NCBI GenBank assembly: GCA_963747235.1
Contig: CAVVEU010000018.1
Span: forward strand, 1-26,748
Direction of reading: 5' to 3'
Source of the DNA: an uncultured Candidatus Rokubacteria bacterium
GTDB taxonomy: Bacteria > Methylomirabilota > Methylomirabilia > Rokubacteriales > CSP1-6
Length of the DNA: 26,748 bases
A program made the translations under genes and the position numbers. The notes under the pieces are model-generated. The model worked only from the letters and a program-made list of their open reading frames with translations, was not told where the DNA came from and did not search any database. Every line of letters starts with the position of its first letter. Within the stretch, counting starts at the first letter, position 1. Of the stretch, positions 3,996 through 20,909 are shown piece after piece.

Positions 3996-4006
3996 GGCCC
4001 GACGCT

Positions 4007-4147
4007 TCAGTCCTGAACCGTGAACGAGTCCATGATGGTGTCGACGTGAGGCGCGGCGGCGGTCCACAAATCCAGATACGTCTCCGCATCGAGCCCGAGC
4101 CGTCCGAATCCGCGGATCTCGCGCCCCACATTCTTCTCCTCGCTCAT
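4007..4147 (-). CDS. Small hypothetical ORF (46 aa) or gene remnant
   Basis: Manual translation MSEEKNVGREIRGFGRLGLDAETYLDLWTAAAPHVDTIMDSFTVQD*. It fills the gap between co-oriented genes and is below the ORF-track cutoff. Confidence 0.35.
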   Translation of the reverse strand: MSEEKNVGREIRGFGRLGLDAETYLDLWTAAAPHVDTIMDSFTVQD

Positions 4148-4152
4148 CAGGC

Positions 4153-5720: not shown

Positions 5721-5760
5721 CTTGCCCCATCGCTCGCCACCCGAGCCCTCGATGAACCGA

Positions 5761-6174
5761 TCAGTGATGTGCCAGATCCAGGAACGGCGTGTCCGGATCA
5801 CTGACGTAGAAGATCATGACTCGCATGAGCTCGGTGCCGCGATTGTAGCCCGTCATCTTCACTTGCGGCGGCTCCACTATCGCTTGCCCTGCCTTGGCCG
5901 TGACCGGAGCGCGGCCCTCCATTTCCAACGTGAACGTCCCTTTCAGGACGTAGACGGTCACCGGGAATCGGTGGGTATGGAACGGCGTGGCCTCGCCAGG
6001 CTTGACGGCCGCCACGAGGACCCGCACCTCTTGCTTCTCTCCCCTGGGCATGCCCTGCACGATCTCGCGAAGGACCGGCGGCGGCGGACTTGCTGGACTC
6101 CGCTCTTGCGCCATCGAACCCGACGGAACGGCCGCAATCATCAGGGCAAGACCGATACCGATCCCACTACGCAT
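5761..6174 (-). CDS. Secreted cupin domain protein
   Basis: N-terminal signal-like segment, then TPFHTHRFPVTVYVLKGTFTLE cupin motif. Confidence 0.85.
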   Translation of the reverse strand: MRSGIGIGLALMIAAVPSGSMAQERSPASPPPPVLREIVQGMPRGEKQEVRVLVAAVKPGEATPFHTHRFPVTVYVLKGTFTLEMEGRAPVTAKAGQAIVEPPQVKMTGYNRGTELMRVMIFYVSDPDTPFLDLAHH

Positions 6175-6197
6175 CCCGTGTTCTCCTCTCGAAGTAC

Positions 6198-6668
6198 TCA
6201 GACTTTCACGTGCTCGATCCCGACGATGCGCGCAGACACGGAGCGTCCGGTGACCGTAAGCTCACCCACCGAGATGGGTAGCTTGAAGCGACGCGGACCG
6301 GCGCTGCCCGGGTTCACATACAGAATCCCATTCCTCCGCTCGACCAACGGCTTGTGCGAATGGCCTGACACGACGACCTGAACGCCTGCGGCATCGGGGT
6401 CCACGGCGAGCTGCGCGAGATCGTGGATCACATAGACGACGACTTCACCGATCTGGCAGCGCTCGGTCTCGCGGAGGCGCGACGCCCACGACCCGTGGTC
6501 GTTGTTGCCTCGCACTGCGGTAACCGGCGCGATGGCCGAGAGCGCCTCGAGGACGCCGCCATCGCAGATATCGCCGCCGTGAATGATGTGGTCGCTGCCC
6601 TCGAGAAACGCGACTGCCTCGGGACGCAGGAGCCCGTGGGTGTCCGAAATGAGGCCGACGCGAAGCAT
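6198..6668 (-). CDS. Metallophosphoesterase (YfcE/MJ0936 family)
   Basis: ISDTHG, HGGDI, VRGNND, SGHSHKP, NPGSAGPRRF. Confidence 0.92.
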   Translation of the reverse strand: MLRVGLISDTHGLLRPEAVAFLEGSDHIIHGGDICDGGVLEALSAIAPVTAVRGNNDHGSWASRLRETERCQIGEVVVYVIHDLAQLAVDPDAAGVQVVVSGHSHKPLVERRNGILYVNPGSAGPRRFKLPISVGELTVTGRSVSARIVGIEHVKV

Positions 6669-6682
6669 GGCCACGCTACCGC

Positions 6683-7057
6683 CTACTCCTCTCCTCGTGG
6701 TCCCTCGTCCGATTTGTTCGGTGACGTCCAGCCTCGCTTCCTTTGCCACATTGATAGGGTGGACATCTGCGAGCGCCCGAATAATCCCCACCGATTTATG
6801 CTGATGCTCTTGGAACGAAGATCAATGCGGACGATGGATGCGGGTTCCCTTCTGAACATGTATGCGCCACCGCATATGTTCCCCATGCCGATAATGACCA
6901 CGAGAATGGACTGCCACCCCGAGCTGAGCGCGGTCAGGCCCATGACAACTGCTACACCACCCCCTAACACAAAGAAGGAGTAGAACAACCAGAACACCGC
7001 CGGACCACACTCAGCGGCCAGGCCCAAGGGAGGCGTGTTGCCTCGCACCGCCATCAT
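6683..7057 (-). CDS. Hypothetical membrane protein (lower GC; possibly degraded)
   Basis: Two hydrophobic segments (VFWLFYSFFVLGGGVAVVMG; ILVVIIGMGNICGGAYMF) in a co-oriented ORF. Confidence 0.5.
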   Translation of the reverse strand: MMAVRGNTPPLGLAAECGPAVFWLFYSFFVLGGGVAVVMGLTALSSGWQSILVVIIGMGNICGGAYMFRREPASIVRIDLRSKSISINRWGLFGRSQMSTLSMWQRKRGWTSPNKSDEGPRGEE

Positions 7058-7090
7058 CCGGGTAACCGAGCGAAGGCTCGGGCCGGCGAG

Positions 7091-7531
7091 CTACGGCCGA
7101 CCGAACTCGACCTCACGGATCCTCGCTTCTCCGTTCTCTGACACGACGATGACGATGACGGCCTCGCTGTACGCCTCCCCCCCGATGCTGACATACGCCC
7201 AGCCAACGTCGGAGGGCTGCTTTCCCGGCCAGCTTGTCATGGTCTGGCCTATCTCGATCGGTCCAATGGCACCCCAGTCCCTGGGAACGATTGCCTCGAA
7301 TCCGGTCCTGAGCTCATCGACCGTGCGGTCCTGGCGGTATCCGTGAGACATCATTGCATAGGCCTTCGGATACTCGCGCGCGGCCAGGGATCTGGCGAAC
7401 TCCAGAGCGACCTGTCCGTGCTCACGTGTGCCTCCGGACGACGTCGTTGGCTCCTCCCTTGAACAGCCCATACCGAGGATGGCAGCCACGATGAGGGTGA
7501 CCGAGACGGATGAGAGAGCTCTCCTGGTCAC
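7091..7531 (-). CDS. Hypothetical lipoprotein
   Basis: Lipobox-like ILGMGC after a hydrophobic stretch. GTG 7531 chosen as the start; the ORF is open to 7639. Confidence 0.65.
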   Translation of the reverse strand: MTRRALSSVSVTLIVAAILGMGCSREEPTTSSGGTREHGQVALEFARSLAAREYPKAYAMMSHGYRQDRTVDELRTGFEAIVPRDWGAIGPIEIGQTMTSWPGKQPSDVGWAYVSIGGEAYSEAVIVIVVSENGEARIREVEFGRP

Positions 7532-7681
7532 CTTCGCGGGAAGCGAAGGGTCAGGTTGCGGGCTCACGCGAGCCTGCCCCCCGAGCGCAGCCTTCGCCGC
7601 GCGCAGGAACTCGACCAAGCCGGGCGGGCAGTCAGCCATCGCTTGGCCCCCTACTCGTCGAGCCCCGCCGGCGACATGACC

Positions 7682-8437
7682 CTACCTCCGAGGAATGGAG
7701 CGACGGAGCCAGTCCGCAAAACGAGTCGGACCGAGACGTGGATTGTCGCCAGGCGTCAGGCTCTTGTCGTTCACGGCTATGCCGAAATAGAGCGCCTTGG
7801 GATCGGTGACTACCGTGCGTGCGTCCCCGGTTGCGCTCAGGAATTGCCGCACGAGCTCGTCTTGGCGGATCGGTTCGGGACCGGCCAGATCGACCGTGCC
7901 GTTCAATGGCTCCGCGAGGGCGACTTCGGCCATGACGGCGGCGACGTCATCCGACACAATGGGCTGCATCAGAGCCGGTGGAAGCCGAACCGTCCGCCCT
8001 TCAGCCGCCGATTCGGCGATGCGGCCCACGAACTCGAAGAACTGGGTGGCGCGGACGATCGTGTAAGGAATGGGGGAGGCCTTGATCAGATTCTCCTGCG
8101 CCATCTTCGCGCGGAAATAGCCGCTCGCGAGCAGGCGGTCGGTGCCGACGACCGACAACGCCACGTGATGGCCGACGCCCGCGGCGGCTTCCGCGGCCAG
8201 GAGGTTGCGACCCGACGTCTCGAAGAACTCCAGGACGGCCTTGTCCTCCCAGGAGGGTGCATTCGCGACATCGACGACCACCTGAGCGCCGGCAAGCGCG
8301 GCCGCCAGTCCCTCTCGGGTTATGGTGTTAACGCCCGACGAGGGTGACGCGGGCACCACCTCATGGCCACGCTGACGAAGGTTGTTCACGAGTTTCTTCC
8401 CGATGAGTCCGGTGCCGCCAACTATCACGATTTTTAT
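7682..8437 (-). CDS. NmrA-like/SDR NAD(P)-binding oxidoreductase; expected start codon reads ATA
   Basis: (I)KIVIVGGTGLIG Rossmann motif, GYFRAKMAQE, IVRATQFFEF. GAGGAG SD precedes ATA at 8437-8435; in-frame GTG at 8428. Confidence 0.88.
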   Translation of the reverse strand: MKIVIVGGTGLIGKKLVNNLRQRGHEVVPASPSSGVNTITREGLAAALAGAQVVVDVANAPSWEDKAVLEFFETSGRNLLAAEAAAGVGHHVALSVVGTDRLLASGYFRAKMAQENLIKASPIPYTIVRATQFFEFVGRIAESAAEGRTVRLPPALMQPIVSDDVAAVMAEVALAEPLNGTVDLAGPEPIRQDELVRQFLSATGDARTVVTDPKALYFGIAVNDKSLTPGDNPRLGPTRFADWLRRSIPRR

Positions 8438-8580
8438 TTTCTTCTCCTCAGTCTTGGCCCGTCAGGTGCATTGAGGGGACTGTTGAGGGCGACCGCCTGG
8501 CGAACGAGCGCCTTGAAGGCGGACTCGTCAACTTCTTCTCCTTCGTGGATGTCGATCGCGCGGTGCACGTTTCCTCTCGA
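8434..8580 (-). pseudogene. 3' remnant of a DUF1801 (YdhG-like) gene
   Basis: GNVHRAIDIHEGEEVDESAFKALVRQAVALN resembles the C-terminus of DUF1801 proteins. The N-terminal part is absent. Confidence 0.7.
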
Positions 8581-8581
8581 C

Positions 8582-9694
8582 TCAACGCGATCGACATGAC
8601 CGCGGCTCAGCGCCCCTGGTGAGCGGGGCAACGCTCGGCCGTAACGTGCGGTTGAAGAATCCGACGATCTCACGATTCATCACCTCATGGAACGCGTCGC
8701 GATCGAAGCCGGCCGGGTCTCGCCCGCCTTCACCGACTACGATCTTCAGCGCCGTGGGAAAGCTCGTGACGAACGAGAAGTGCCCGGCACCCTTGACCAG
8801 AACGCATTCCGCCCGAGGCAGCGTCTTCGCCAGGCGCTCGCCATGATACGGCAGGCGCGTCAGGTCGTCCTTCTCCGCGGCGTAGACAAGCGCGGGAACC
8901 GTGACCCTTGCCAGCGCATCGTCCGTGAACCGCACCACGTTCGGCGCCAATAGGACAATGGACCGAACCCTCGGATCGCGGAGCTCCGGGAGGTGGCCGA
9001 CCTCGCGAGCGGCTTCCCGAGTGGCAGCACCCCCGTAGCCGCAGAACCTGGCGTCGTCGGGATGCTCGCGGCAATGCGCGGCCTCTGAGCCAGGACTGGG
9101 TCGGGCACCGGCGACTGCCAGCGCGGTGTAGCCACCATTCGAATGCCCCACTATCCCGATGCGCTCGCGCTCGATGTGCGGCCCGAGCTCTCCGTCGTCC
9201 AGCACCGCATCAACAACGCGGGACACTTGCTTCGGGCGGCCGACCCACACGCTGGCGCCGGATATGTCGTCGCCCTTCCCTCGCGGGTGGGTGGGCGCCG
9301 CGACGACGTAGCCTTGCAAGGCGAGCGCCATCGCCAGATCCCGGTGGAGCAAGGCCATGCCGCCGGCCCCATGCGAGACGACGATCACCCCGAAGGCCCC
9401 TGCCGCGACCGGCGCATCCTGGGCCACCGGCATCTCGAACGCTATACGCCGACAGACGATCGCCGGCAAGCGACACCGCGAGAGCGAGCCGGTCAAAAAG
9501 AGAGGAGCGGGCGCGGCGGGGGTGGGATACCAGAGAGCGACAGGGAATGACTCGCCAGTCACCGCGTCTTGCAGAGCGATCGTGCGGTAGCCGACGTTCC
9601 AAGACGGCGCGGCCGCCGCCGTCGGAGCGAAGCAGAAAAGCAGGACTGCCGACAGGAGGCACACGCGACACTTGAAGACTGCGGGCGACCTCAT
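8582..9694 (-). CDS. Secreted alpha/beta hydrolase (predicted dienelactone hydrolase family)
   Basis: Signal-like N-terminus, VALWYP, VVSHGAGG, nucleophile elbow GHSNGG, GAGHFSF. Confidence 0.88.
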   Translation of the reverse strand: MRSPAVFKCRVCLLSAVLLFCFAPTAAAAPSWNVGYRTIALQDAVTGESFPVALWYPTPAAPAPLFLTGSLSRCRLPAIVCRRIAFEMPVAQDAPVAAGAFGVIVVSHGAGGMALLHRDLAMALALQGYVVAAPTHPRGKGDDISGASVWVGRPKQVSRVVDAVLDDGELGPHIERERIGIVGHSNGGYTALAVAGARPSPGSEAAHCREHPDDARFCGYGGAATREAAREVGHLPELRDPRVRSIVLLAPNVVRFTDDALARVTVPALVYAAEKDDLTRLPYHGERLAKTLPRAECVLVKGAGHFSFVTSFPTALKIVVGEGGRDPAGFDRDAFHEVMNREIVGFFNRTLRPSVAPLTRGAEPRSCRSR

Positions 9695-9733
9695 CGCGGT
9701 ATTAGAAGCATCACCGACGACTGTGGTAGATAC

Positions 9734-9777
9734 CGGCACGCCGCTTGCGGCGCGTCCGCTGCAACGCGGTGCTAGGC
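9734..9777 (-). other. Degenerate half attC relic
   Basis: Minus strand GCCTAGC-accgcgttgcagcggac-gcgccgcaagcggcgtgc: mutated R'' (AAC to AGC), L'' and central hairpin. L'/R' are missing. Lies 18 nt after a stop codon. Confidence 0.6.
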
Positions 9778-9795
9778 GAGCCCAACGCAGCAACC

Positions 9796-10212
9796 TTATG
9801 GCTGACTCGCCCCGGACGCGTGCATATGGGTGAGCTTCCAAGCGTCATGCTCGCGGACGAACAAAAGCGTACGCCGCTGCAGGGGCAACTGGCGCCCGCC
9901 GATGGTTAGCTCAAGGGTAAATGTGACGAGTCCCACATCGCCGTAGCGCTCGGTCCGGATGTCGAGCGGTTTCAGGTTCAGGTACGGCGGCCCGGGTCTG
10001 CGTGCCCGCGCTTCCTCGAAGAATCGCCGCCAGCGCCCCTCGACTGCTACCTGTCCAGTAAGGCGCTCCGGCGTGTCGCCAAACGGGAAGAAGGCCGTCG
10101 CGGTGGACGCCCAGCTCGCCCGGAATGGCTCCCAGTCGAGATCGTCCAGCGCACGCAGAAATCGCTCAGCCGCCGAGCGAATTCCTGCGAGATCCTCAGG
10201 CGGACACATCAC
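9796..10212 (-). CDS. SnoaL-like / NTF2-fold protein (cassette gene)
   Basis: FLRALDDLDWEPFRASWA...RRTLLFVREHDAWKLTHMHAS. Confidence 0.85.
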   Translation of the reverse strand: MMCPPEDLAGIRSAAERFLRALDDLDWEPFRASWASTATAFFPFGDTPERLTGQVAVEGRWRRFFEEARARRPGPPYLNLKPLDIRTERYGDVGLVTFTLELTIGGRQLPLQRRTLLFVREHDAWKLTHMHASGASQP

Positions 10213-10345
10213 GATTCCGGAGGAGGCTTATGCGTTGAATAAAGTCGTTGCAGGCATTTTCGTATGTGGCCGTCGTAGTGCTCCTGCCAGTTGCAGCGGG
10301 ATCCGCATTGACGCAGATGTCGGTGACCGCCTCGCAGGCCACGGT

Positions 10346-10424
10346 GTCTGACCGCCGTTCACCTGCGGCGGACCAAGCGACCGCAAGGAGCGAGGCCGGC
10401 CTCAGGTCGAACGGCATGTTAGGC
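10346..10424 (-). other. attC site (79 bp; R' is GTCAGAC, non-canonical)
   Basis: R'' GCCTAAC overlaps the TAA of the upstream gene. Imperfect palindrome with arms gccgttc-acctg / caggt-c-gaacggc. Confidence 0.85.
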
Positions 10425-10898: not shown

Positions 10899-10920
10899 CG
10901 TCCGCTTCCCTGCGTTCTGG

Positions 10921-11358
10921 CTACCCGAGCTCTTGGGCGAGCCCGATGAGGATTCCTTCGGGCCCCCGGATGTAGCAGAGCCGGTACGTGTCTTCATACT
11001 GGACCACTTTGCCGACGAGCTCCGCGCCGCGTTTGCCGAGCCGGGCGAGCGTATCGTCGATGTCCTCCACGGTGAACATGACGCGTAGGTAACCGAGAGC
11101 GTTCACCGGGGCGCTGCGGTGATCGGCGACCACAGGCGGCGCGAGGAATCGGGACATCTCGAGCCGGCTGTGACCGTCCGGCGTACGCATCATGGCAATC
11201 TCGACGCGCATATCGCGCAATCCAGTGACGCCATCTGCCCAGTCTCCTTCGATTGGGGCACGCCCCTCAAGCTCAAGGCCAAGTTCGGCAAAGAACTCAA
11301 TGGCGGCATCGATGTCTTCTACCACGATGCCGACGTTGTCCATACGCTTGACCGTCAT
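10921..11358 (-). CDS. VOC/glyoxalase family protein (cassette gene)
   Basis: MDNVGIVVEDIDAAIEFFAELGL...YRLCYIRGPEGILIGLAQEL. Preceded by GTTAGAC and a GGGAG SD. Confidence 0.92.
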   Translation of the reverse strand: MTVKRMDNVGIVVEDIDAAIEFFAELGLELEGRAPIEGDWADGVTGLRDMRVEIAMMRTPDGHSRLEMSRFLAPPVVADHRSAPVNALGYLRVMFTVEDIDDTLARLGKRGAELVGKVVQYEDTYRLCYIRGPEGILIGLAQELG

Positions 11359-11372
11359 GATGTCTCCCTGGC

Positions 11373-11409
11373 GTCTAACGTGCCGCGTCAGCCGCGCCCG
11401 TCCGCGGGC
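11373..11409 (-). other. 3' half (hairpin, L', R' GTTAGAC) of an attC interrupted by the IS
   Basis: Plus strand gtctaac-gtgccgcgtcagccg-cgcccgtccgcgggc directly abuts the IS end. Confidence 0.75.
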
Positions 11410-11453
11410 GGATCTTCCCTCGGTTTTGTAGACACGGGTTCACGACCGAAGTT

Positions 11454-12336
11454 CTAGACGTGCTGCGCTTCATAGTCAACCGGGGAGCGGTAGCCGAGCG
11501 CCGAGTGCAACCGGACGCGGTTGTAGTACGGGATGTAGCGCCGGAGCAGCGGCGCGAGTTCGTGGCTCGCCAAGCTGACGCCGTGGACAACGTCCGTCTT
11601 CATCGAGTGGAAGAAGGACTCCATGTGCGCGTTGTCCGTGACCTCCCGGGGTCGGTTCATACTCTGGACGAATCCGAGGGTGGCCAAGCGGGCGCGGAAG
11701 GCGTACGCCGCGTACTCGCTGCCCCGGTCGGAGTGGAAGAGGAGCCCGGGCGGGGGACGCCGATTGACCACCGCGTGGTTGAGCGCGGCCAAGGTCAGCC
11801 CCGCCTCCTTATGGCGGCCCAGGCTCCACCCGACGACCCGCCGCGAGTAGCGATCCAGGACCACCGCGAGATAGCGCCACGCCGGCCCGACCTTCAGATA
11901 GGTAATCCCCCACCCAGACTTGAGCCGGCCCCGTGGCCAAGCGAGCGAGCTGGCGGTTGGGGATGCTGGTGAAGAAGGCGTGCAACCCCGGGATGGCTCG
12001 GTACAGCGTCACCGCGCGGGCGCGCAGCCCCGCCGCACGCATGAGCCGCGCGACCCGGCGCCGGCTGACCCGGGTGCCCGCCGCCCGGAGCGCCTGATGG
12101 ATCCGCGGGCTGCCATACGTCCCTCGACTGCCGTCGAAGATGGTGCCAATCGCGCGCAAGAGGTCCCGGTCCTGTCCCCGACGGGGGCTCTCGCCCCGGC
12201 CTCGCCACGCGTAGTAGCCCGCCCGCGTGACGCCGTAGAGCGCACAGAGCCGCTTCACCGTGAACCCCCCGCGCTGGCTCGCGATGAACGCGAAGATCTC
12301 GCGCTTCGTGCGGAACAGAACCGGATGGCTTTTTTT
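11454..12336 (-). pseudogene. IS3 OrfB DDE transposase with an extra frameshift near 11904
   Basis: TYGSPRI, QVWVGD/(I)TYLKV..WRYLAVVLDRYSRRVVGW, HSDRGSEY, DNAHMESFF, RLHSALGYRSP. The frame breaks at GGGGAT-TACC, consistent with a 2-nt loss. Confidence 0.85.
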
Positions 12337-12626
12337 AGGAGCGCATGCTCCTCCTGCAGTATCGCGTGCTCGCGCTCGAGGTCCTGCAGCCGCTTGATCT
12401 CGCGCACCCGCTGCCCCTCGCCGGCCCTTCGCCGGACCCGGCCTTTCAGTGTCCCGTCCCGGGCTTCCTTGCGCCAGCGCGACAGCATGAACGGATGGAG
12501 GTCCAGGGCGTCGGCCACCGTCTGCACCTGCACCCCCGGCATGCCGCTCAACTTCACCGCCGTCAACTTGAACTCCACACTGTAGTGGTGCACCTTCCGC
12601 GGCCCAATCGGTCTGCCCACCGACAC
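12255..12626 (-). CDS. IS3 OrfA (HTH) with programmed -1 frameshift motif AAAAAAAG at 12336-12329
   Basis: YSVEFKLTAVKL...VADALDLHPFMLSRWRK...ILQEEHALLKKA. Confidence 0.9.
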   Translation of the reverse strand: MSVGRPIGPRKVHHYSVEFKLTAVKLSGMPGVQVQTVADALDLHPFMLSRWRKEARDGTLKGRVRRRAGEGQRVREIKRLQDLEREHAILQEEHALLKKAIRFCSARSARSSRSSRASAGGSR

Positions 12627-12671
12627 CTCCCTGTGTTAGCCAGAAGTGTCTACTTTATCGAGGGAGGTCCA

Positions 12672-12697
12672 CGGTCCGTTGGAGCGGGATGTTGGGC
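12672..12697 (-). other. 5' half (R'' GCCCAAC, L'') of an attC interrupted by the IS
   Basis: Lies 9 nt after the SBP stop. R'' is complementary to the GTTGGGC that starts this cassette. Confidence 0.8.
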
Positions 12698-12706
12698 AGC
12701 GCGTAA

Positions 12707-13726
12707 TCACTCGATGACCCGGTCTACTCGGAGTAGGAGCGAGGGCGGGATCGTCTGGCCGAGCGCCTTCGCAGCCCGGAGGTTGATCGCCAACTCGAAC
12801 GTGGTCGGCTGCTGAATGGGGAGATCGGCGGGCCTCGCGCCTTTGAGGATCTTGTCGACGAAGGTTGCCGCCCGCCGGTGCTGATCGGAGTAGTTCGGGG
12901 CGTACGACATCAACCCTCCGGCCTCCACATACTCGCTATCGGGATACATCCCCGGCAGCCGGTGTCCTGCTGCGAGGCCGACGATCCGGGCTCGATGAGC
13001 ATTGGTAACAGCGTGCGGCAGCACGATGAGTCCTTGGGCGCGGCCCTTGATGAGGTTGGCGAAAGCCTGCTCGATCTCGTCGGGCCCGGCTATCGCGTGA
13101 AGCTGGGGCATTGCCTTCACCGCCTTGGCAGCGCCTTCGATCACTTGCCATAGCCTGCAGTTTTGATCGCTGCACGGATCAGAACTGAGGGGGTTGGCAG
13201 CTAGAGTTCGTGAGACGGTGAGAACGGCAACCCGATAGACCGTGGGCACCGCCTCCCTCAACAGCTCTACCCATTTCCGACTCACTTCGTCCGCGAGGCC
13301 GGTTATCCCAGTGATGTTTCCACCCGGCCGTGCGAGGCTGGCGGCGTAACCGTTCGCGACGGGATCCGCCACGGTGGCAAAGACGATCGGTATCGTTCGC
13401 GTCGCTCTCTGGAGAGCGGCGACGCCGGCGTTGTTATACGTGACAAGTACGTCAACCTTGAGCTGAGTGAGTTCCGCGGCGAGCGCTGGGAACCGGTCGG
13501 GCCTGCCTTCCGCCCAGCGGTAATCAATCGAAATGTTCTGGCCCTCCACGTAGCCGAGCTCCCGCAGGCCTTGCCGGAAGGATTCGAGCAGGCGTGCGCC
13601 CGCGGAAGCGGAAACAGGTCCCAGGTAACCAATCCGCCAGGTCTTCGTCGGCGGCTGCGCGGCGGCAACGAACGGCGCGGCCGTGACCGCGATGCTTGCG
13701 GCGAGAAATGCGCGACGGCTCGTCAC
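12707..13726 (-). CDS. ABC transporter substrate-binding protein (ABC_sub_bind-type) carried as an integron cassette
   Basis: Twin-Arg-like SRRAFL signal, LGYVEGQNISIDYR, SLARPGGNITG, AGGLMSY, DLPIQQPTTFELAINL. Confidence 0.92.
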   Translation of the reverse strand: MTSRRAFLAASIAVTAAPFVAAAQPPTKTWRIGYLGPVSASAGARLLESFRQGLRELGYVEGQNISIDYRWAEGRPDRFPALAAELTQLKVDVLVTYNNAGVAALQRATRTIPIVFATVADPVANGYAASLARPGGNITGITGLADEVSRKWVELLREAVPTVYRVAVLTVSRTLAANPLSSDPCSDQNCRLWQVIEGAAKAVKAMPQLHAIAGPDEIEQAFANLIKGRAQGLIVLPHAVTNAHRARIVGLAAGHRLPGMYPDSEYVEAGGLMSYAPNYSDQHRRAATFVDKILKGARPADLPIQQPTTFELAINLRAAKALGQTIPPSLLLRVDRVIE

Positions 13727-13764: not shown

Positions 13765-13834
13765 GCCCAACGTGTACGCTCAGCGGCCGGGGCGAGCACC
13801 GCGAGCCTCGGACCGCTGCAGCGGGATGTTGGGC
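13765..13834 (-). other. attC site (70 bp)
   Basis: R'' GCCCAAC ... R' GTTGGGC, arms cgct-cagcgg / ccgctg-c-agcg. Shares its core with the attC at 17480. Confidence 0.92.
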
Positions 13835-13838
13835 AGCA

Positions 13839-14140
13839 TCACTCGATCACGTGGTCCGCCTGCACTCGCAGCGACTGCGGGATCGTCAGTCCGAGGACCT
13901 TGGCGCTCTTGAGGTTGATCGTCAGTTCGAACTTCGTGGGTTGCTCGACCGGAAGATCGCCCGGTTTCGCGCCTTTCAAAATCCGATCCACGACCGCCGC
14001 CGTCCGCCTATTTAGCTCGACCGGATCAAACGTGTACGAGATCAAGCCACCAGCTATGACGTTCCGGGAGTTGCCCACCATGAGCGGGAGCCGGTGGTTA
14101 GCGGCGAGCTCACTGCTTCGCGTCTGAAAAGCCTGCTGCT
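13839..14140 (-). pseudogene. 3' fragment of an ABC substrate-binding protein gene
   Basis: ELAANHRLPLM...AGGLISY...DRILKGAKPGDLPVEQPTKFELTINLK...ADHVIE*. The 5' two-thirds is missing. Confidence 0.88.
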
Positions 14141-14167
14141 GCGGTCCGCTCCAGCGTGAAGTTAGGC
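14141..14167 (-). other. Truncated attC (R'' GCCTAAC and L'' only)
   Basis: Minus strand GCCTAAC-ttcacgctggagcggaccgc runs directly into the SBP fragment. Confidence 0.75.
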
Positions 14168-14506: not shown

Positions 14507-14563
14507 GCCTAACGCCGCGGTGAGCGGCGCGCGAAACGCGTCCGCTCTACTGCAAAGTTATCC
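14507..14563 (-). other. attC site (57 bp)
   Basis: R'' GGATAAC (contains the toxin TAA) ... R' GTTAGGC, with hairpin gagcgg-cgcgcgaaacgcg-tccgctc. Confidence 0.9.
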
Positions 14564-14855
14564 GTCCTTTCGCCGCCTCCACACACGAGGATCTCTGGCA
14601 CCGTGGAAGACGGCGTACACCACGATCTCGCCGGGCTCGATTTCGTAGAAGACCGCGTACGGAAATCGCCGCAGGAGCGCTCTGCGCATCGTCGGATCGA
14701 CCAGGGCGTAGGCTCCGGGATGGCGCCGGATCGACGCGAGGCAGGTGTCGACGGCCGCAAGGAAGTCCGAGGCGAGGCCGGGCGCCTGTCTGGTACCAGA
14801 GGTGGGCCTCGTCCAGATCAAGCTCAGCCTCCGGGGTGAGGCGCAGCCGCTTCAC
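14558..14855 (-). pseudogene. RelE/ParE-family toxin, frameshifted near 14790
   Basis: MKRLRLTPEAELDLDEAHLWY in one frame continues as RQAPGLASDFL...RRALLRRFPYAVFY...VYAVFHGARDP in another. Confidence 0.88.
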
Positions 14856-15070
14856 TTGCGACGTCGGAGCCTAGCACGTACCTGCGCCCAAGATCGCGCG
14901 GCAGAAGGATTACGCGCGTGCGCACGCCGCCGCCGCTCGAGTTCCTTACGTTGGGCGTCCGTGACCGGAACCGCCTCGGGTGTTTCAACGAGGCTGTCCC
15001 AGATTTCTTCGAGCAGCTGCAGCCGATCGGGAACACTGAGCCCTCGGATCTACTTGCGAACGGTGCTCAT
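14852..15070 (-). pseudogene. Addiction-module antitoxin (TIGR02574-like) with in-frame TAG at codon 7
   Basis: Manual translation MSTVRK*IRGLSVPDRLQLLEEIWDSLVETPEAVPVTDAQRKELERRRRAHARNPSAARSWAQVRARL. GTGA overlap with the toxin gene. Confidence 0.88.
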
Positions 15071-15120: not shown

Positions 15121-15245
15121 GGATAACGTTTGAGCTGAGGGGCTCGCGCCGGTGTGGCGCTTGGCCCGCGAGGCGCTCGCTGTCATCATCGTTTCGCGGG
15201 CCAAGCGCCACACCGGCGCGAGTCCCCGCGAGCGAAGGGTTAGGC
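15121..15245 (-). other. attC site (125 bp)
   Basis: R'' GCCTAAC ... R' GTTATCC, with a long perfect stem ctcgcgccggtgtggcgcttggcccgcga / tcgcgggccaagcgccacaccggcgcgag. Confidence 0.95.
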
Positions 15246-15770
15246 ATCGCTGCGTCCGGCACGGCTGAGCGTGTAGTAGAGAAGCATTTGACCCGACTTG
15301 CCTTCAAACCAGCGGCTTGCGGTGTGGACTCGCGCTGCAACCTTGCGCGAGGCATCGTTCCTCGGGTCGACGATTGAGCCGACGAGCTGAGCACCCAGCG
15401 AACTGAACGCGTACTCCAATGAGGCGGCACCCGCTTCGCTTGCGTAACCGCGGTTCCGATGGTCGGGATGGATGTGCCAGCCCACTTCATGGATTCGCTG
15501 GTCTTCCACTATCTGGAGGGTGACTCCGGCGTCCCCGATGAACAGACCTGAGTCGAGTAGTTCTATGGCGAACAGGCCGAAACCGAACTCAGCGTAGTTG
15601 CGCAGGTTCCAGGCAACCCAGCGCTCCAGTGCTTCAGGCTGACTCAGCGTGGGGTAGAACTGCTGTGCGTACGGATCGCCAAAGACTGCCGCCAACTGTG
15701 CGGCGTCGGTCGGGACGAAATGCCGCAGACCTAGGCGGGGTGTGCAGAGGACGTACGCGGGGTCCGACAC
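15240..15770 (-). CDS. GNAT N-acetyltransferase, RimJ/RimL-like (cassette gene)
   Basis: TPRLGLR, FIGDAG, EVGWHIHPDHRNRGYASEA, PRNDASRKVAAR. Start set at GTG 15770, inside the cassette boundary. Confidence 0.9.
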   Translation of the reverse strand: MSDPAYVLCTPRLGLRHFVPTDAAQLAAVFGDPYAQQFYPTLSQPEALERWVAWNLRNYAEFGFGLFAIELLDSGLFIGDAGVTLQIVEDQRIHEVGWHIHPDHRNRGYASEAGAASLEYAFSSLGAQLVGSIVDPRNDASRKVAARVHTASRWFEGKSGQMLLYYTLSRAGRSDA

Positions 15771-15781
15771 TTGTTTGCGAT

Positions 15782-15841
15782 GCCTAACGCTCAGTATCAG
15801 CCGCGGCGCGGAGCGCCGGCAACTGCATGCTGAAGTTAGAC
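15782..15841 (-). other. attC site (60 bp)
   Basis: R'' GTCTAAC (contains TAA) ... R' GTTAGGC, central cggcgc-gga-gcgccg hairpin. Confidence 0.85.
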
Positions 15842-16339
15842 ATGCTCGCCACCACGACGCGATCCACAAAGCGACAAGAACTCGTCTCCTGTCATGATTC
15901 TTGTGGCGAACTCCGTCTCGAGCCGTTCACGCCGCCCACCTTCGATAAATCCCTTCCTGTCATTCGTCACAAAGATGTCGCGACCGTCACGGATGTGGGC
16001 GGACAGTATCATCGCGTCGCGAAGCTGCCGCCGCTCCCCGGCTGACAGCTTCGAACGCCGCTCTCGCGCCGGGAACGACCCGTTCGAAATGACCTGCAGG
16101 AGTCGCTCGAATGCGTCCGCCACAGGCCGCGCTCCGAGGGCGGCAACGCCAATCGCGCTCTCTCCCATCACAAATGGTTCTACGACGGCCCGATTGTTCT
16201 CGAACGCCGTTTGTACCCCTGACGACTCCAACTCCCGATCGGTGACCGTCGTATGAGCGAGCTCGAAGCCGGCCAGCCGTGCCGCATCGGCAACCCGCCC
16301 ATCGTCCACTGTGTTTGTGTCCAAAGTGACCGACACCAT
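15836..16339 (-). CDS. PIN-domain-like protein (cassette gene)
   Basis: N-terminal VTLDTN, VTDRE and C-terminal DAMIL...IFVTNDRKGF give the acidic pattern typical of PIN nucleases. Confidence 0.65.
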   Translation of the reverse strand: MVSVTLDTNTVDDGRVADAARLAGFELAHTTVTDRELESSGVQTAFENNRAVVEPFVMGESAIGVAALGARPVADAFERLLQVISNGSFPARERRSKLSAGERRQLRDAMILSAHIRDGRDIFVTNDRKGFIEGGRRERLETEFATRIMTGDEFLSLCGSRRGGEHV

Positions 16340-16340
16340 A

Positions 16341-16403
16341 GGATCACGTGGGCTTCAGCCGCCACGAGCGAAGCGAGTGGTCGGCTGCAAGCCCGAGTTA
16401 TCC
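16341..16403 (-). other. attC site (63 bp; R' is GTGATCC, non-canonical)
   Basis: R'' GGATAAC (contains TAA), arms gggctt-cagccg-ccac / gtgg-t-cggctg-c-aagccc with two extrahelical bases. Confidence 0.88.
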
Positions 16404-17393
16404 AGCGACGCAACCCGCGCCCGCAGCAAACGTCACCCTCGCGAAACGGTCCGTAGCCCGAATCAACTCCTCCGTGATGCCAGGATTGCTGGCCGCGTGC
16501 CCAGCATCGTTCACAACCACCAACTCCGAGCGAGGCCATAGGCGGTGCAGTTTCCACGCCGTAGCGAGCGGCGCCTGAAAATCGAAACGCCCGTTCACGA
16601 GCACCCCAGGAATGCCCGCAAGCCTATCCGCGTCACGCAAGACACTTCCATCGCCAAGCCACGCATTGTGACGAACGTAATGCGTGACCAGCCGCGCATA
16701 GGCCATGGCGAACGACGGATCACGGAACCGCGCTGCCAATCCAGACACAGGAGGCCAATCCGGTGTCGCGGACTCCCACAAGCACCAGGCAAGAGCAGCC
16801 CGCTCACGAATCACGGCATCCGAATCCTGCAACAAGCGGCAGTATGCCTCGACGATATCGCCGTCGCGATCGGCGACCGGCAAGGCGCTGCGGCGACACC
16901 CCCACTCTTCGGGGAAGAACGCGCCAAGACCGTCACGAAACAACCAGTCAAACTCCTCGCGCTGACCCGTCGTAACGCCAAACAGGATCAATTCCGTCAC
17001 ACGAGTCGGAAACCGCTCGGCATAGGCAAGCGCCAACGCGCTGCCCCATGACCCACCCAACACCAACCACCGCTCGACATTGAGGTGCACCCGCAGCCGC
17101 TCAATGTCGACGATCAGATTTTCAGTGGTGTTTCCCGACAACTCTGTCTCAGGGGAGCTCGCATGAGGCCGGCTCCGCCCACAACCACGTTGATCAAACA
17201 GCACAACGCGGTACGCAGCAGGATCGAACAACCTCCGATGCCACGGCGTGCACCCCGAACCGGGACCACCGTGTAGGACGACAGCAGGCTTGCCCCTGGG
17301 ATTGCCGCACACCTCCCAGTACACGAGATCACCGCCAGTGACCTCCAGCATGCCCTGCGCATACGGCTCGATCTCGGGATACAGGTCTGGCAT
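16398..17393 (-). CDS. pip: Proline iminopeptidase (cassette gene)
   Basis: LYPEIEPY, HGGPGSG, FDQRGCGRSRPHA, GGSWGS, GRFD, AGH. Confidence 0.93.
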   Translation of the reverse strand: MPDLYPEIEPYAQGMLEVTGGDLVYWEVCGNPRGKPAVVLHGGPGSGCTPWHRRLFDPAAYRVVLFDQRGCGRSRPHASSPETELSGNTTENLIVDIERLRVHLNVERWLVLGGSWGSALALAYAERFPTRVTELILFGVTTGQREEFDWLFRDGLGAFFPEEWGCRRSALPVADRDGDIVEAYCRLLQDSDAVIRERAALAWCLWESATPDWPPVSGLAARFRDPSFAMAYARLVTHYVRHNAWLGDGSVLRDADRLAGIPGVLVNGRFDFQAPLATAWKLHRLWPRSELVVVNDAGHAASNPGITEELIRATDRFARVTFAAGAGCVAG

Positions 17394-17479
17394 ACCTCGC
17401 CTATCTCAAGCCCACCATGAACTGCCCCGGCGCGCATTCACCGTGCGCACTCAAAGACACGAGACATAGCCGCACGACT

Positions 17480-17552
17480 GGATAACGGTCCCGCTCAGCA
17501 GCCGGAGGGCGAGCACCGCGAGCCCCCGGTCTGCTGCAGCGTTCAGTTCGAC
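17480..17552 (-). other. attC site of the first cassette (73 bp)
   Basis: R'' GTCGAAC ... R' GTTATCC, arms cgct-cagcag-ccgg / ccgg-t-ctgctg-c-agcg. Confidence 0.93.
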
Positions 17553-17570
17553 GGTGCCAGCTCGCACGGA

Positions 17571-17963
17571 TCATGCTCGCGGGAATACCTCCTCGAAGAA
17601 GTGCCGATCACCGGGGAAGGTCGGATCCAGCGTCGCGATCTCTTGGACGGTCACCCAGCGGGCATCACTGACCTCCCGCCGGTCAGGCCTGAGATCGTGG
17701 TTCTCCGCCTCCGCCAACCACCAATGCAGCGTGTGGGTCCCTCCTGCCGAGACGCTCTCCCAGACCTTCCGCACCGGTCGGATCGTTACGCCAACCTCTT
17801 CCTTCACCTCGCGAATGACAGCGGCCTCCTGTGTCTCATCGGGCTCCACCTTCCCGCTGGGCGGTGCCCACTTTCCGGGATCGGGTCCACTTGGTCCTCG
17901 CCGAATCATCAACACTAAGGGCCCACTCCGCACTACAGCAACGATGGCGTCAGGCAACACCAT
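17571..17963 (-). CDS. NUDIX hydrolase (first cassette)
   Basis: Nudix box GKVEPDETQEAAVIREVKEEVG. Confidence 0.92.
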   Translation of the reverse strand: MVLPDAIVAVVRSGPLVLMIRRGPSGPDPGKWAPPSGKVEPDETQEAAVIREVKEEVGVTIRPVRKVWESVSAGGTHTLHWWLAEAENHDLRPDRREVSDARWVTVQEIATLDPTFPGDRHFFEEVFPRA

Positions 17964-17978
17964 TCGTGCTACTCATCC

Positions 17979-18050
17979 GTCGAACTAGAAATATCCCGGT
18001 CTGCATATTTCGCCCTCGCGCGGGCTTGGTGCGGATAATCCGGCCGGGAT
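17979..18050 (-). other. Putative attI site (crossover G/TT at 17985/17984)
   Basis: Minus strand ...aaatatgcagaccgggatatttctaG/TTCGAC. GTTCGAC is the exact complement of the first cassette's R'' GTCGAAC. No attC hairpin precedes it. The upstream boundary is approximate. Confidence 0.75.
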
Positions 18051-18124
18051 GGCCGGGGCGATGTGGCGGGAGCGGCCTTGGGGGGACGCGTGGTTGGGCA
18101 TGGTCCCGGGGTGCGAGTTCAGTT

Positions 18125-19165
18125 TTACACAGACCTGGATACTTCTGGATGGGGGATTGTGAGGGCCCGGCCACTCATGGGGAGGGGGAGGCGGTCGGCG
18201 GGGCTGAGGACGCCGGCGGGGCCTCGGTTGAGGACGTGGGTGTAGATCATGGTGGTGGAGACGTCGCGGTGGCCGAGGAGCTGCTGGACGGTGCGGATGT
18301 CGGCGCCGTCTTCCAGCAGGTGGGTGGCGAAGGCGTGGCGGAAGGTGTGGCAGGTGGCGCGCTTGGGGATGTCCTTACTGCGCACGGCTTCCTTCACCGC
18401 GCGCTGCAGGACGGATTCGTGCAGGTGGTGGCGGCGGCGCTGGTTGGTCTCGCGGTGGAGGTAGGTGCGGGTGGCGGGGAAGATCCATTGCCAGACCCAC
18501 TCGCGGCCGGCGCGGGGATACTTGCGGGCCAGGGCCCAGGGCAGCTCCACCCAGCCCGCGCCGGCGCGGAGGTCGGCGGCGTGCTGGTCGCGCATGGTCT
18601 CGAGGTGCTTGGCGAGGTCGCGGCTGGCGGCGGCGGGCAGCATCGTCACGCGGTCCTTGTCGCCCTTGCCGGAGCGCACCGTGATCTGGTTGCGCGCGAA
18701 GTCCACGTCCTTCACGCGCAGGCGCAGGGCTTCGAGCAGCCGAAGGCCCGCGCCGTAGAGGAGCAGGGCCGCCAGGCGGGTCGGCCCGTCGAGCGCGTCG
18801 AGGACGGCCTGCACCTCCTCGCGGGTGAGCACGACCGGGATCCGTTCGCGGCTCTTGGCCCGCACGATCTCGTCGAGCCAGGGCAGCGCCTGCTCGAGGA
18901 CCTCGCGATAGAGAAAGAGCAGCGCGCTCAGGGCCTGGTTCTGGGTGGAGGCGGCCACGTTGCGCTGAATGGCCAGGTCGCTCAGGAAGCGCGTGACCTC
19001 GGCGGCGCCCATCTCGGCCGGATGGCGCTTGCCGTGGAACACGATGTAGCGCCGGATCCAGCCGACGTAGGCCTTCTCCGTGCGGAGGCTGCAGTGGCGG
19101 GTGCGCAGCGCGGCCCGCACGCGATCCAGCAGCCGCGGCGGGGGCGGAGCCTCGAGATGCGTCAT
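18125..19165 (-). CDS. intI: Integron integrase (tyrosine recombinase)
   Basis: [35 protein letters not shown], integron-specific insert [47 protein letters not shown]. Confidence 0.97.
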
Positions 19166-19171
19166 GAGGCC

Positions 19172-19199
19172 AGGCTACCCGGCGGGCCCGCGCGCGCAA
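19172..19199 (-). promoter_or_regulatory. Putative leaderless intI promoter
   Basis: TTGCGC-16nt-TAGCCT-6nt-ATG, with no SD. Confidence 0.45.
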
Positions 19200-19230
19200 G
19201 ACGTGGACACGGCGATACACGGGCGGTAGC

Positions 19231-20217
19231 ATGCAGAGCCGGATGCCCTTCGCCTACTTCCAGCGGCTCACGCGGCGGCAGCAGGCGATCTATCTCGAGA
19301 GCGACGGCCTCGTGACGATGCCGCTGCCGCAGGCGGGGCGGCTCCAGCCCGTCGTGACCGCGCTGGCCCGCGCGCTCGAGGGCGGCGATCGCGCCACCAC
19401 CGAGGCGGCGGCGCAGCGGCTGGTCGCGGGCCTGGCGCGTGCCCTGGGCGCCCCGCCGGTGCGCGTGACGGTCCTGGCCGCGCGGCCCCATGCGAAGTGG
19501 GGCGAGCTGCACGGCTTGTACGAATCACCCGGGCGCGGCCCGGAGCCGCCGCTGATCACGCTCTGGATGCGCACCGCGCGGCAGAAGCGCGTGGTGGCCT
19601 TCCGCACCTTCCTCCGCACGCTCCTCCACGAGGTCGGGCACCACGTGGACTATACTCTGCTGCGGCTGGGCGACTCCTTCCACACCCAGGGCTTCTACGC
19701 GCGGGAGTCGCACCTGTTCCATCAACTGGTCACCGACGGGGGCATTCTCATGGCAAGTCTCGAGGAGCAGATGGCGCGCATGGAGCGCGCGGCGGACGAC
19801 TACGCGGCCGCCATCAAGGGCGTGTCGGACGCCGCGCTCAGCAAGCGCCCGGACGACAAGAGCTGGTCGGCCAAGGAATCGCTGTGCCACGTGCGCGACA
19901 CCGAGGAGTCCTTCATGATCCGCTTCCAGACCATCATGGAGATGGACGAGCCGCGGTTCCTGCCGGGCGATCCCGACCGCTGGGCGACCGAGCGCCAGTA
20001 TCAGAGAAACGACGCGGGGGAGGCGCTGCAGGCCTTCCGCGTGCGGCGCGACGAGACCTTGAAGTTCCTGCGCGGGCTACGGCCGGAGCACCTCGATCGC
20101 GGCGGCGTGCACCCGACCCGCGGCCGCATGACCGTCAAGGACTTCGTGGGCCTCATGGCCTGGCACGACGACAACCACCTCGATCAGCTCAAGCGGGCGC
20201 TCGCGGGCAAGCCCTAG
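19231..20217 (+). CDS. Fusion of an HExxH-motif domain and a DinB/YfiT-like domain
   Basis: LLHEVGHHVD in the N-terminal half. KRPDDKSWSAKESLCHVRDTE...WHDDNHLDQL in the C-terminal half. Start may be ATG 19243. Confidence 0.8.
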   Translation: MQSRMPFAYFQRLTRRQQAIYLESDGLVTMPLPQAGRLQPVVTALARALEGGDRATTEAAAQRLVAGLARALGAPPVRVTVLAARPHAKWGELHGLYESPGRGPEPPLITLWMRTARQKRVVAFRTFLRTLLHEVGHHVDYTLLRLGDSFHTQGFYARESHLFHQLVTDGGILMASLEEQMARMERAADDYAAAIKGVSDAALSKRPDDKSWSAKESLCHVRDTEESFMIRFQTIMEMDEPRFLPGDPDRWATERQYQRNDAGEALQAFRVRRDETLKFLRGLRPEHLDRGGVHPTRGRMTVKDFVGLMAWHDDNHLDQLKRALAGKP

Positions 20218-20909
20218 CGCGCGCCCGCCTGGCGCAGGCGCGCCACCATCGCGGCGTGGCCGCGGGCCTGGGCCAGGGCCAGCGGCGTCCGGCCGTCGCG
20301 ATCGGGCAGGTTCACGTTCGCGCCCGCCTCGATCAGCGCGGTCAGCGTGTCGGTGTGGCGCGCGCCGCCGTCGCCGAGCACGACGGACTCGATCAGCGCG
20401 GTCCAGCCCAGATTGTTGACGTGGTCGAGCGGGGCGCCCGCGCCGATGAGCGTGCGCACCACCTCCGCGTGGCCCAGGTGCGCGGCCGCGATCAGCGCGG
20501 TGCCGTCGTAGCGGCTGGTCACGCTCCGCGCGCTCGCGCCCAGAGCCAGGGCGACGCGCAGGGTCGGCACGTCGTTGGCGACCGCCGCGATCGTCACGAT
20601 GTCGTACCGGTCTCGCTCCAGCGCGTTCGGGTCCGCACCCGCGGCCACCAGCGCCAGCATGGCCTCGTGGTGGCCGCCGTACGCGGCCACGTGCAGCGGC
20701 GTGCGGCCGTGGCCGTCGCGCCCGTCGGGCTTCCGGCCGCCCGCCACCAGCGCCTTGACCCGGGCCGCGTCGCCCTGCGCCGCGGCGGCGAAGAGCCCTG
20801 CGTACCCGGCCCTCTCCTCCGCCGACGGCGACACCTGCGCCGACGCCTCACCGAGGCCACCCACCAGGAGTGCGAGCGCCACCGCGCGGGCGAGCCCGCA
20901 CGCCCGCAT
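20214..20909 (-). CDS. Exported ankyrin repeat protein
   Basis: Signal-like N-terminus, then GRTPLHVAA, GTALIAAA, GWTALIE and GRTPLALA repeats. Confidence 0.92.
   Translation of the reverse strand: MRACGLARAVALALLVGGLGEASAQVSPSAEERAGYAGLFAAAAQGDAARVKALVAGGRKPDGRDGHGRTPLHVAAYGGHHEAMLALVAAGADPNALERDRYDIVTIAAVANDVPTLRVALALGASARSVTSRYDGTALIAAAHLGHAEVVRTLIGAGAPLDHVNNLGWTALIESVVLGDGGARHTDTLTALIEAGANVNLPDRDGRTPLALAQARGHAAMVARLRQAGAR

Follow-up and report, generated by a model that had tools for sequence, protein, structure and literature searches.

The 26.7-kb stretch of DNA analysed here (the window), which is the entire contig C18 of a 5.57-Mb metagenome-assembled genome (MAG; G000), carries an integron integrase gene, intI, followed on the same strand by a recombination site, attI, and an array of gene cassettes that end in attC sites. 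As judged from the sequence, the element is very likely (a probability of about 0.9) a sedentary chromosomal integron, of the inverted or co-oriented type already known, in a soil bacterium, the chromosomal replicon being an assumption for a contig of only this length. An earlier note on this DNA had proposed a sedentary integron of the inverted type, and that proposal is borne out by the score of the integrase against its family profile, by attC covariance models, by related genomes (designated Gnnn) and by one metagenome contig. New here are an attI unit delimited by comparison, with inverted terminal boxes, and arrays that lack intI and keep this unit.

The integrase gene

The gene at the centre of the element is as follows.

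18125-19165, minus strand: intI, intact, predicted to encode an integron integrase of 346 amino acids (aa), from matches to TIGR02249, Pfam and the structure 2a3v

The product of this open reading frame (ORF) is predicted to be an integron integrase, a tyrosine recombinase with the additional segment specific to IntI. It matched the NCBIfam profile TIGR02249 with 457.8 bits (curated cut-off 265) over profile positions 1-315 of 315, and the scores of the XerC, XerD and XerA models were far under their cut-offs. The Pfam domains Phage_int_SAM_4 (SAM-like N-terminal domain) and Phage_integrase (catalytic domain) were found, and the catalytic R, H-x-x-R, H and Y were picked out by eye in the translation. 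The closest solved structure is V. cholerae IntI4 (PDB 2a3v; E 6.5e-87, residues 13-326), and the alignment with it is free of gaps through residues ~200-245, a stretch absent from Xer proteins. A genome-wide profile search identified this gene as the sole TIGR02249 match above the cut-off.

The nearest named relatives are IntI proteins of Acidobacteriota MAGs with 72-74% identity, and the IntI of a Treponema MAG shares 50% identity. With a soil MAG as the source and these as the nearest named relatives, the suggestion that the lineage is a poorly studied one is plausible. Judged from these relatives alone, the host would probably belong to the Acidobacteriota.

The attI crossover and the edge of the variable region

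The crossover lies on the 3' side of intI.

17979-17985, minus strand: GTTCGAC, the attI R box; crossover after G (17985) and before TT (17984-17983), placed from the homology break, the alignment and heptamer complementarity

Homology breaks place the predicted attI crossover, G/TT, between 17985 and 17984. The heptamer GTTCGAC, read from 17985 to 17979, is found 139 bp beyond the stop codon of intI, and its reverse complement is exactly (7 of 7 positions) GTCGAAC, the R'' box of the first attC site (17552 to 17546), as expected from the earlier note, which had the array starting ~140 bp past the stop codon at G/TTCGAC.

The region was compared by blastn with the four closest genomes, and homology was found to begin at 17981 (G020), 17977 (G014), 17981 (G015) and 17977 (G016), and to run at 86-91% through intI, the neighbouring DinB-like gene and the backbone beyond it. 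On the left side of the junction there was no match in these genomes except for one cassette in G016. Each of the four has a different first cassette, that of G016 being homologous to the window cassette at 9886-10341, and the crossover heptamer is within 8 bp of the break in all of them. The expectation that relatives would share constant sequence up to ~17985 and vary beyond it is thus met with breaks at 17977-17981.

Eight genomes of the same genus, aligned in the intI sense, are conserved from the end of intI to ...GATAyTTCTAGTT and unrelated beyond, and at the edge the genomes read GTTCGAC, GTTCGGC (three of them), GTTAGGC, GTTGGGC, GTTAGCC and, where a contig ends, GTTAG. At five other loci, the edge heptamer was compared with the R'' box of the first attC detected there and proved complementary at 7 of 7 positions in three and at 6 of 7 in two. 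Four soil or sediment metagenome runs gave thin, fragmentary read coverage with no joints reported. Contigs from two of the runs (X2 and X3) bridge the junction as it is in the window, and a contig from X5 matches from 17983 rightwards and continues into 255 unlike letters on the cassette side.

The GC content also changes sharply at ~18000. It is 68% for the window overall, 0.68-0.78 and mostly >0.70 to the right of this point, where the long ORFs have a GC content at third codon positions of 0.93-0.96, and 0.59-0.70 between ~3000 and 18000, as against 0.70-0.78 in the backbone.

Contig ends were observed ~45-900 bp from the 3' end of intI in five relatives (G011:C29, G019:C68, G007:C12, G002:C179 and G005:C146), which is expected if assemblies break in variable, repeat-bearing arrays on that side.

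The attC sites and the cassette array

Two covariance models of attC were used: R1, built from six aligned sites of the window with the architecture R''-spacer-L''...L'-spacer-R', and R2, built from 74 sites found around other intI loci. Nine attC sites, all on the minus strand and 3' of intI, were recognised, of which six are strong, two are weak and one is split by an insertion sequence (IS). The sites and genes of the array, from attI outwards, are:

17571-17963, minus strand: gene of cassette 1, NUDIX hydrolase (PF00293, E 8.9e-23)
17480-17552, minus strand: attC1; R1 75.7 and R2 62.9 bits (13.6 and 14.5 on the plus strand), fold z -3.16
16398-17393, minus strand: gene of cassette 2, alpha/beta hydrolase (PF00561, E 8.1e-27)
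16341-16403, minus strand: attC2, with R' GTGATCC in place of a GTT core; R1 59.6 and R2 47.6 bits, fold z -5.23
15782-15841, minus strand: attC3; R1 59.9 and R2 55.1 bits
15121-15245, minus strand: attC4, a long site; R1 52.7 and R2 32.0 bits
14507-14563, minus strand: attC5; R1 51.2 and R2 47.3 bits, fold z -3.07
14073-14167, minus strand: attC6, weak or degenerate, R' GGTGGGC; R1 14.4 bits (E 0.095) and R2 17.8 bits (E 0.06)
13765-13834, minus strand: attC7; R1 77.6 and R2 68.7 bits, fold z -3.88
11373-12697, minus strand: attC8, split by an IS3-type insertion, its halves read by eye and neither joined nor scored
10346-10424, minus strand: attC9, weak, R' GTCAGAC; R2 21.5 bits (E 0.011) and R1 9.6 bits
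3177-10345, minus strand: probable continuation of the array, with lower GC (0.59-0.70), genes on the minus strand only and, from their Pfam content, small accessory genes

On the six strong sites R1 gave 51-78 bits on the minus strand and 11-23 on the plus strand, scores that arise by construction and show polarity and not existence, independent support coming only from other genomes. R2 recovers the same six sites at 32-69 bits, and with both models the strong sites score 32-78 bits on the minus strand against 11-25 on the plus strand. In the consensus structure from RNAalifold, 14 base pairs are formed, compensatory changes are seen in 7 of these, and a single base bulges out of the 5' arm.

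The plus strands of five of the sites, folded as single-stranded DNA, gave z of -1.9 to -5.2 relative to shuffles, and these hairpins have single-base bulges on the 3' arm. As this position fits the bottom-strand layout given in the introduction of Nivina et al., with extrahelical bases near L'', the plus strand would be the recombining bottom strand and the minus strand the coding strand of the cassettes. The minus strand is also the coding strand of intI. Complementarity between each R'' and the preceding R', counted over 9 links, is 7/7 in 6, 6/7 in 2 and 4/7 in 1, and includes a 7/7 link for the R'' of the degenerate attC6. The boxes of attC8 are R'' GCCCAAC (12697 to 12691) and R' GTTAGAC (11379 to 11373), and the IS between them (11454-12626) consists of ORFs at 12255-12626, 11809-12258 and 11454-11864 with HTH_Tnp_1, HTH_21 and rve domains, and is apparently frameshifted. 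An energy-only scan for attC sites was discarded as uninformative in DNA of this GC content, random pairs folding as well as true sites.

The gene ahead of attC4 encodes a GNAT acetyltransferase (ORF 15240-15869, PF13302), and a 167-aa ORF with no assigned family (15836-16339) has its stop codon inside the R'' box of attC3. Further minus-strand genes below attI encode, from Pfam matches, a glyoxalase, a SnoaL-like protein, a second hydrolase, an NmrA-like protein, a metallophosphoesterase, a cupin, an AAA_33 kinase-like protein and methyltransferases. This gene content is typical accessory cassette cargo.

Several details of individual cassettes were recorded. The stem of attC4 (15139-15226) is unusually long, 33 nt with 97% complementarity around a 22-nt loop, and is much closer to perfect than the stems of the other sites. 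The cassette at 14547-15036 has two overlapping small minus-strand ORFs of 102 and 70 aa without a Pfam match, which by eye look like a toxin-antitoxin pair in their arrangement. The cassette at 13839-14081, right after the degenerate attC6, has an ABC_sub_bind gene of which just the final ~80 codons are present; full genes of this family are present in two other cassettes (12707-13726 and 4153-5226), and the related genomes have dozens of copies with 64-75% similarity over many contigs. The SnoaL cassette common to the window and G016 has a 144-bp 5' segment (10198-10341) that is inverted relative to the G016 sequence (L032, 13640-13784). This segment carries a ribosome-binding site (RBS) and a signal-peptide-like start, and one of its ends is a few bases from the cassette boundary. 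It is possible that the inversion was mediated by the integrase, although the junctions are not exactly at G/TT.

The 5' side of intI

The opposite flank of intI consists of backbone sequence.

19166-19230, no strand assigned: the 65-bp region between intI and the DinB-like gene, conserved in a five-genome alignment
19231-20217, plus strand: backbone gene with a C-terminal DinB_2 domain (PF12867), with homology in 7 relatives and syntenic across the genus

The arrangement that had been described, with intI on the minus strand (18125-19165) and separated from a divergent backbone gene by 65 bp, was found as stated. The same intI and backbone are present at this position in G020, G014, G015, G016 and G011 (85-92%), and more loosely in G007, G002 and G019. 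The 65-bp region contains a promoter-like sequence on the plus strand, TGGACA-17-TAGCAT, identified by a consensus scan, and another on the minus strand, TTGCGC-N16-18-TAGCCT, read by eye and ending 8-9 nt before the intI start.

Cassette variation on the 5' side of intI, which would have counted against an inverted layout, was looked for in the relatives. The more distant members of the genus, G007, G002 and G019, have an extra 1.1-2.0 kb between intI and the DinB-like gene, which from the translations includes an IS transposase-like ORF in G002, and a carbonic-anhydrase-like ORF and other genes on the intI strand in G007 and G019. A search of this extra DNA for attC with filters off gave a best score of 11.6 bits (E 0.62). 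To the right of intI in the window, R2 found no attC at E<=1 and R1 gave noise only (best a partial hit of 14.8 bits, E 0.07).

If the integron were canonical, attI and the cassette promoter (Pc) would occupy the 65 bp before the intI start, and the array downstream would be a separate, unrelated attC cluster lacking an integrase (CALIN). This would conform to the general rule for well-studied integrons, which is all that speaks for it. However, the 65 bp show conservation and lead into a syntenic backbone gene, attC hits on this side of the window are absent, and the junction of constant and variable sequence is on the 3' side of intI. Such an arrangement is scarcely credible here, and the co-oriented layout is retained.

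The ankyrin-repeat backbone gene at 20214-20909 is present in G015 and G011, and a clean one-gene gap is found in its place in G020, G014 and G016.

Distribution of the co-oriented layout

The 80 nearest IntI loci in public genomes, from many phyla, were all set with intI on the plus strand and searched with R1, hits being counted at E<=0.01. There were 80 hits in 27 of the 80 loci: 74 downstream of intI on the plus strand (23 loci) and 6 upstream on the minus strand (4 loci). No hit was found in any other configuration, which supports the specificity of R1. The remaining 53 loci had no hit, and many of them have a contig end near intI. The four canonical loci are from a Blastocatellia MAG, a betaproteobacterial MAG, a Methylomirabilis MAG and a filamentous cyanobacterium, while the 23 co-oriented loci include Acidobacteriota, Gemmatimonadota, Planctomycetota, Eisenbacteria, Nitrospirota, Elusimicrobiota, Myxococcota and Bacteroidota, with the complete genome of Engelhardtia mirabilis among the Planctomycetota. 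Among loci from the same genus, family or order, 21 R1 hits were found in 8 of 14 loci, and 19 of the 21 are downstream of intI on the intI strand.

A quick maximum-likelihood tree was built from 92 rows, comprising 91 IntI sequences and one Xer from G000, with the single long Xer branch as root. Loci L060, L079 and L117 (because of their length), L033 and the automatically collected loci L001-L028 were not included. The four canonical loci fall in one 16-row clade with Proteobacteria and cyanobacteria, with a support of 85 in the SH-like approximate likelihood ratio test, and the 31 co-oriented rows are outside it. One change of layout is needed on this tree, in which 56 rows are without a layout call. 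The co-oriented loci are not monophyletic in this tree, matching the paraphyly reported in a part of PMC4889954.

This layout is named the inverted integron-integrase group in a section of PMC4889954, and passages of PMC3607928 and PMC4889954 describe the group, of the Treponema denticola type. An extract of a preprint on archaeal integrons states that Spirochaetota IntIs are 'generally in reverse orientation'. The layout in the window is therefore an already known one and the rule around this IntI, and is not a new architecture. The group was reportedly named in a 2007 review. The earlier note took co-oriented layouts to be a minority, but near this IntI they make up 23 of the 27 loci with readable orientation.

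Anatomy of the attI unit

Sequence conservation delimits a unit of ~175 bp that includes the crossover and extends into the 3' end of intI.

17979-18153, minus strand: the attI unit, ~175 bp, with conserved edges in ten full copies
17991-18008, minus strand: block E, a near-palindromic 18-mer by the crossover, consensus TTATCCAGACCTGGATAC, composed of an R'-like TTATCC and an inverted GGATAC
18033-18041, minus strand: block D, a further R'-like box, GGATTATCC, conserved in the alignment and ~30 bp upstream of block E
18060-18111, minus strand: the central block, ~50 bp, highly conserved
18125-18142, minus strand: block A, an 18-mer, GTATCCAGGTCTGTGTAA, an inverted copy of block E that overlaps the intI stop codon

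Ten full copies of the unit were found, 5 linked to intI and 5 without intI or with a pseudo-intI, and the two edges are identical in all. In the window, the 5' edge is inside the poorly conserved C-terminal tail of the intI ORF. Many columns of block A are invariant among the copies. As the TTATCC/GGATAC-type boxes resemble the heptamers GTTATCC (R') and GGATAAC (R'') of the array, they are putative integrase-binding boxes.

It could be argued that the 175-bp unit is instead a very long, attC-like folded site, with intI carried like a cassette and the true primary site elsewhere. The 18-bp inverted repeats, blocks A and E, do bracket the unit, with 11-16 of 18 positions of block A agreeing with reverse-complemented block E in 10 of 10 full copies, and RNAalifold pairs them; the unit also ends in an attC-like GTT heptamer and occurs at several loci without intI. 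However, the variation in the repeat arms is not compensatory, and there is no AAC where R'' should be. The possibility that the sequence after intI folds as an attC had been raised before, and 17979-18125 neither scores nor folds as one. With filters off there was no hit with R1 at E up to 10 or with R2 at E up to 1, although the models tolerate a 125-nt site, and as single-stranded DNA the unit gave z of -0.98 and +0.49, a fold no more stable than that of shuffles, against -1.9 to -5.2 for attC. The 5' side of intI is, moreover, constant backbone in 5 aligned genomes. A long attC in this position is very unlikely, and the unit is treated as attI in what follows.

The central block had no Rfam match, an Rfam scan of the window at gathering thresholds finding none, and at E<=1 the three loci with copies of the unit gave nothing but a miRNA hit attributable to chance. 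A conserved RNA or DNA fold for this block was rejected, RNAalifold finding only short, weak stems, as was a 38-codon ORF in the unit ending at the TAG of CTAGTT, which is non-coding, its frame being broken by indels among the relatives.

A partial copy of the unit was observed near the left end of the window (748-848; 74.5% identity over 102 nt). It corresponds to the 5' two-thirds, consists of the central block and a diverged block A without the crossover boxes, and ends ~35 nt ahead of the RBS and ATG of a DUF805 gene (from about 760 to 283, minus strand). A tblastn search for an intI remnant beside it gave noise only. This copy is either a relic or a regulatory module. Parts of the surrounding region, 281-2912, have 72-87% matches on other contigs of relatives, which suggests backbone genes or genes of wide distribution.

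Copies of the attI unit at loci without intI

A second full attI unit is present in G000 itself, on contig C33 (236924-237072; L127, 9919-10091), with 84% identity over window positions 17980-18153. The array adjoining it (L127, ~5000-9919) has two attC sites of 63.6 and 40.1 bits on the expected side and strand in ~5 kb of low GC, and includes a glyoxalase cassette 94% identical to window positions 10920-11395. The only match to IntI at this locus is to its last 8 codons.

Further units are found in G020 on contigs C23 (L128, 4867-5033) and C47 (L129), each with two attC hits and no IntI match, in G014 on contig C272 (L131, 4963-5127), where the core is degenerate (ATG for GTT) and no attC was found at E<=0.05, and in G015 on contig C267 (L130, 404-615), where the unit is beside intI fragments. 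At all of these loci the similarity to the window extends from ~17980-17986 to ~18150-18154. The C33 locus of G000 and the C47 locus of G020 are orthologous, sharing 90% identity over 5.1 kb from exactly the unit into the backbone, and their cassette sides are unrelated. The C23 and C272 loci have only the attI unit in common with the others.

The arrays on C33, C23 and C47 have at least 2 attC sites and no intI within 5-10 kb, and are thus CALINs in that attC sites are present without a nearby integrase. Unlike CALINs, they still start with a full attI unit, the edges of which match those of the copy linked to intI. As IntegronFinder annotates only the attI sites of classes 1-3, the unit would be invisible to it. 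The introduction of another preprint states that arrays without an integrase can be mobilised in trans. There is about an even chance that a single IntI runs several attI platforms in trans, at no fewer than three intI-less loci in the genus, each platform with a changing array of its own. It was also considered that the inverted ends might let IntI treat the attI module like a giant attC, making it a mobile docking module; if true, this would explain the copying of whole platforms to new loci with identical edges, and it is improbable.

Expression of the cassettes

The earlier note had offered TGTGTAAAAC at ~18122-18131 as a candidate Pc. This sequence (18131 to 18122, minus strand) overlaps the intI stop codon and is better read as an arm of the inverted repeat, its conservation being explained by its position at the outer end of block A. 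As an extended -10 element it was rejected: the spacing of the TG does not fit, relatives have TAACAC, no -35 is present, and the scan gave no hit. No promoter-like site was found on this strand by a sigma-70 consensus scan of 17400-19400, the consensus not necessarily being that of the lineage, and no terminator was found between intI and attI.

With neither a terminator nor a promoter found on the strand, read-through from the intI promoter is possible for the window array. It cannot serve the array on C33, where the neighbour on that side is, by eye, a divergent gene; in arrays of that type either the attI unit has a promoter missed by the scan or the arrays are silent. At most 0.08 of the sampled words were present in the RNA runs.

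State of the array

Different first cassettes in close relatives, and common cassettes at different positions, are indirect signs of cassette excision and insertion. The layout could be as described in a fossil platform, with an IntI that no longer moves cassettes and differences that predate its silencing. One attC is interrupted by an IS, two have non-GTT cores and one is degenerate, one cassette is a gene fragment, no attC is recognisable in the distal half of the array, and some intI copies in the same genus have internal stops or are fragments. However, intI in the window is intact with a full-length score, and the first five links of the array are well formed apart from the R' of attC2. 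The first cassette, moreover, is different in the four closest genomes, with flanks that are 86-91% identical, a common cassette is at different positions in two genomes, and one metagenome contig has a different sequence at the junction. A fossil platform is unlikely, and the sedentary integron described here remains the preferred explanation.

The following points weigh against the integron as described here. The two non-GTT cores, GTGATCC (16341-16347) and GTCAGAC (10346-10352), may mark junctions that no longer recombine, and the first of these, the R' of attC2, matches the next R'' at only 4/7 positions; with the IS-split attC, they indicate that part of the array may be frozen. The length of the array is uncertain, as neither R1 nor R2 found an attC within 3177-10345 at E<0.7. 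The X5 evidence for a variable junction is a single low-depth contig, and the R1 scores in the window are circular in the sense given above. As the G000 MAG is 88% complete with 4.9% contamination, the presence of only one intI is not certain. In G036, two weak attC hits of 22-26 bits are present 5' of intI on the intI strand (contig C4; L042, 14109-14169 and 15514-15573). As several intI matches were found in that genome, these hits may come from the end of an adjacent co-oriented array.

Proposed working and comparison with known integrons

In the scheme proposed, intI would be transcribed towards its own attI, with the cassettes after it on the same strand, each ending in an attC hairpin of which the window plus strand would recombine. 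IntI would bind the TTATCC/GGATAC-type boxes of the ~175-bp unit, and the bottom strand of a folded attC would be exchanged with attI at G/TT, as in studied integrons. Transcription of cassette 1 would then start at the intI promoter and read through, or start at a promoter inside the attI unit, and the same IntI may serve the intI-less array on C33 in trans.

The element resembles inverted integrons of the T. denticola type in being co-oriented, chromosomal (as assumed here) and composed of accessory genes of mixed function. For Treponema, a passage of PMC3607928 indicates that attI could not be delimited, whereas ten copies delimit it here. With the V. cholerae superintegron it shares the integrase family, attC sites with R and L boxes, an unpaired spacer and bulges in one arm, cassettes whose first six bases complement their own R'', and a fixed place in the genus. 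The superintegron has intI and attI back-to-back, whereas in the window they are head-to-tail; there is thus no common divergent region for the intI promoter (Pint) and Pc, and intI transcription enters attI.

The attI1 site of class 1 integrons consists of a simple site, L-R, and the direct repeats DR1 and DR2. Like attI1, the attI of the window has several motifs resembling integrase boxes upstream of a GTT crossover, the nearest of them inverted. There is no sequence similarity between the two, and the window unit is longer (~175 bp), with its outermost box inverted and ~130 bp away and an extra central block.

To our knowledge, integrons outside the Proteobacteria are mostly computer annotations of intI and attC, and their attI sites and promoters are essentially uncharacterised, for attI because each genome has one such site only. 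Here, ten natural copies delimit attI to ~175 bp and expose its internal repeats, and they provide a ready-made construct for testing docking and cassette expression in a co-oriented integron. The general picture of the integron is unchanged, the inverted layout being established and, by this count, common in soil lineages. The intI-less arrays indicate that CALINs can keep a complete docking site, which bears on whether such arrays still capture genes.

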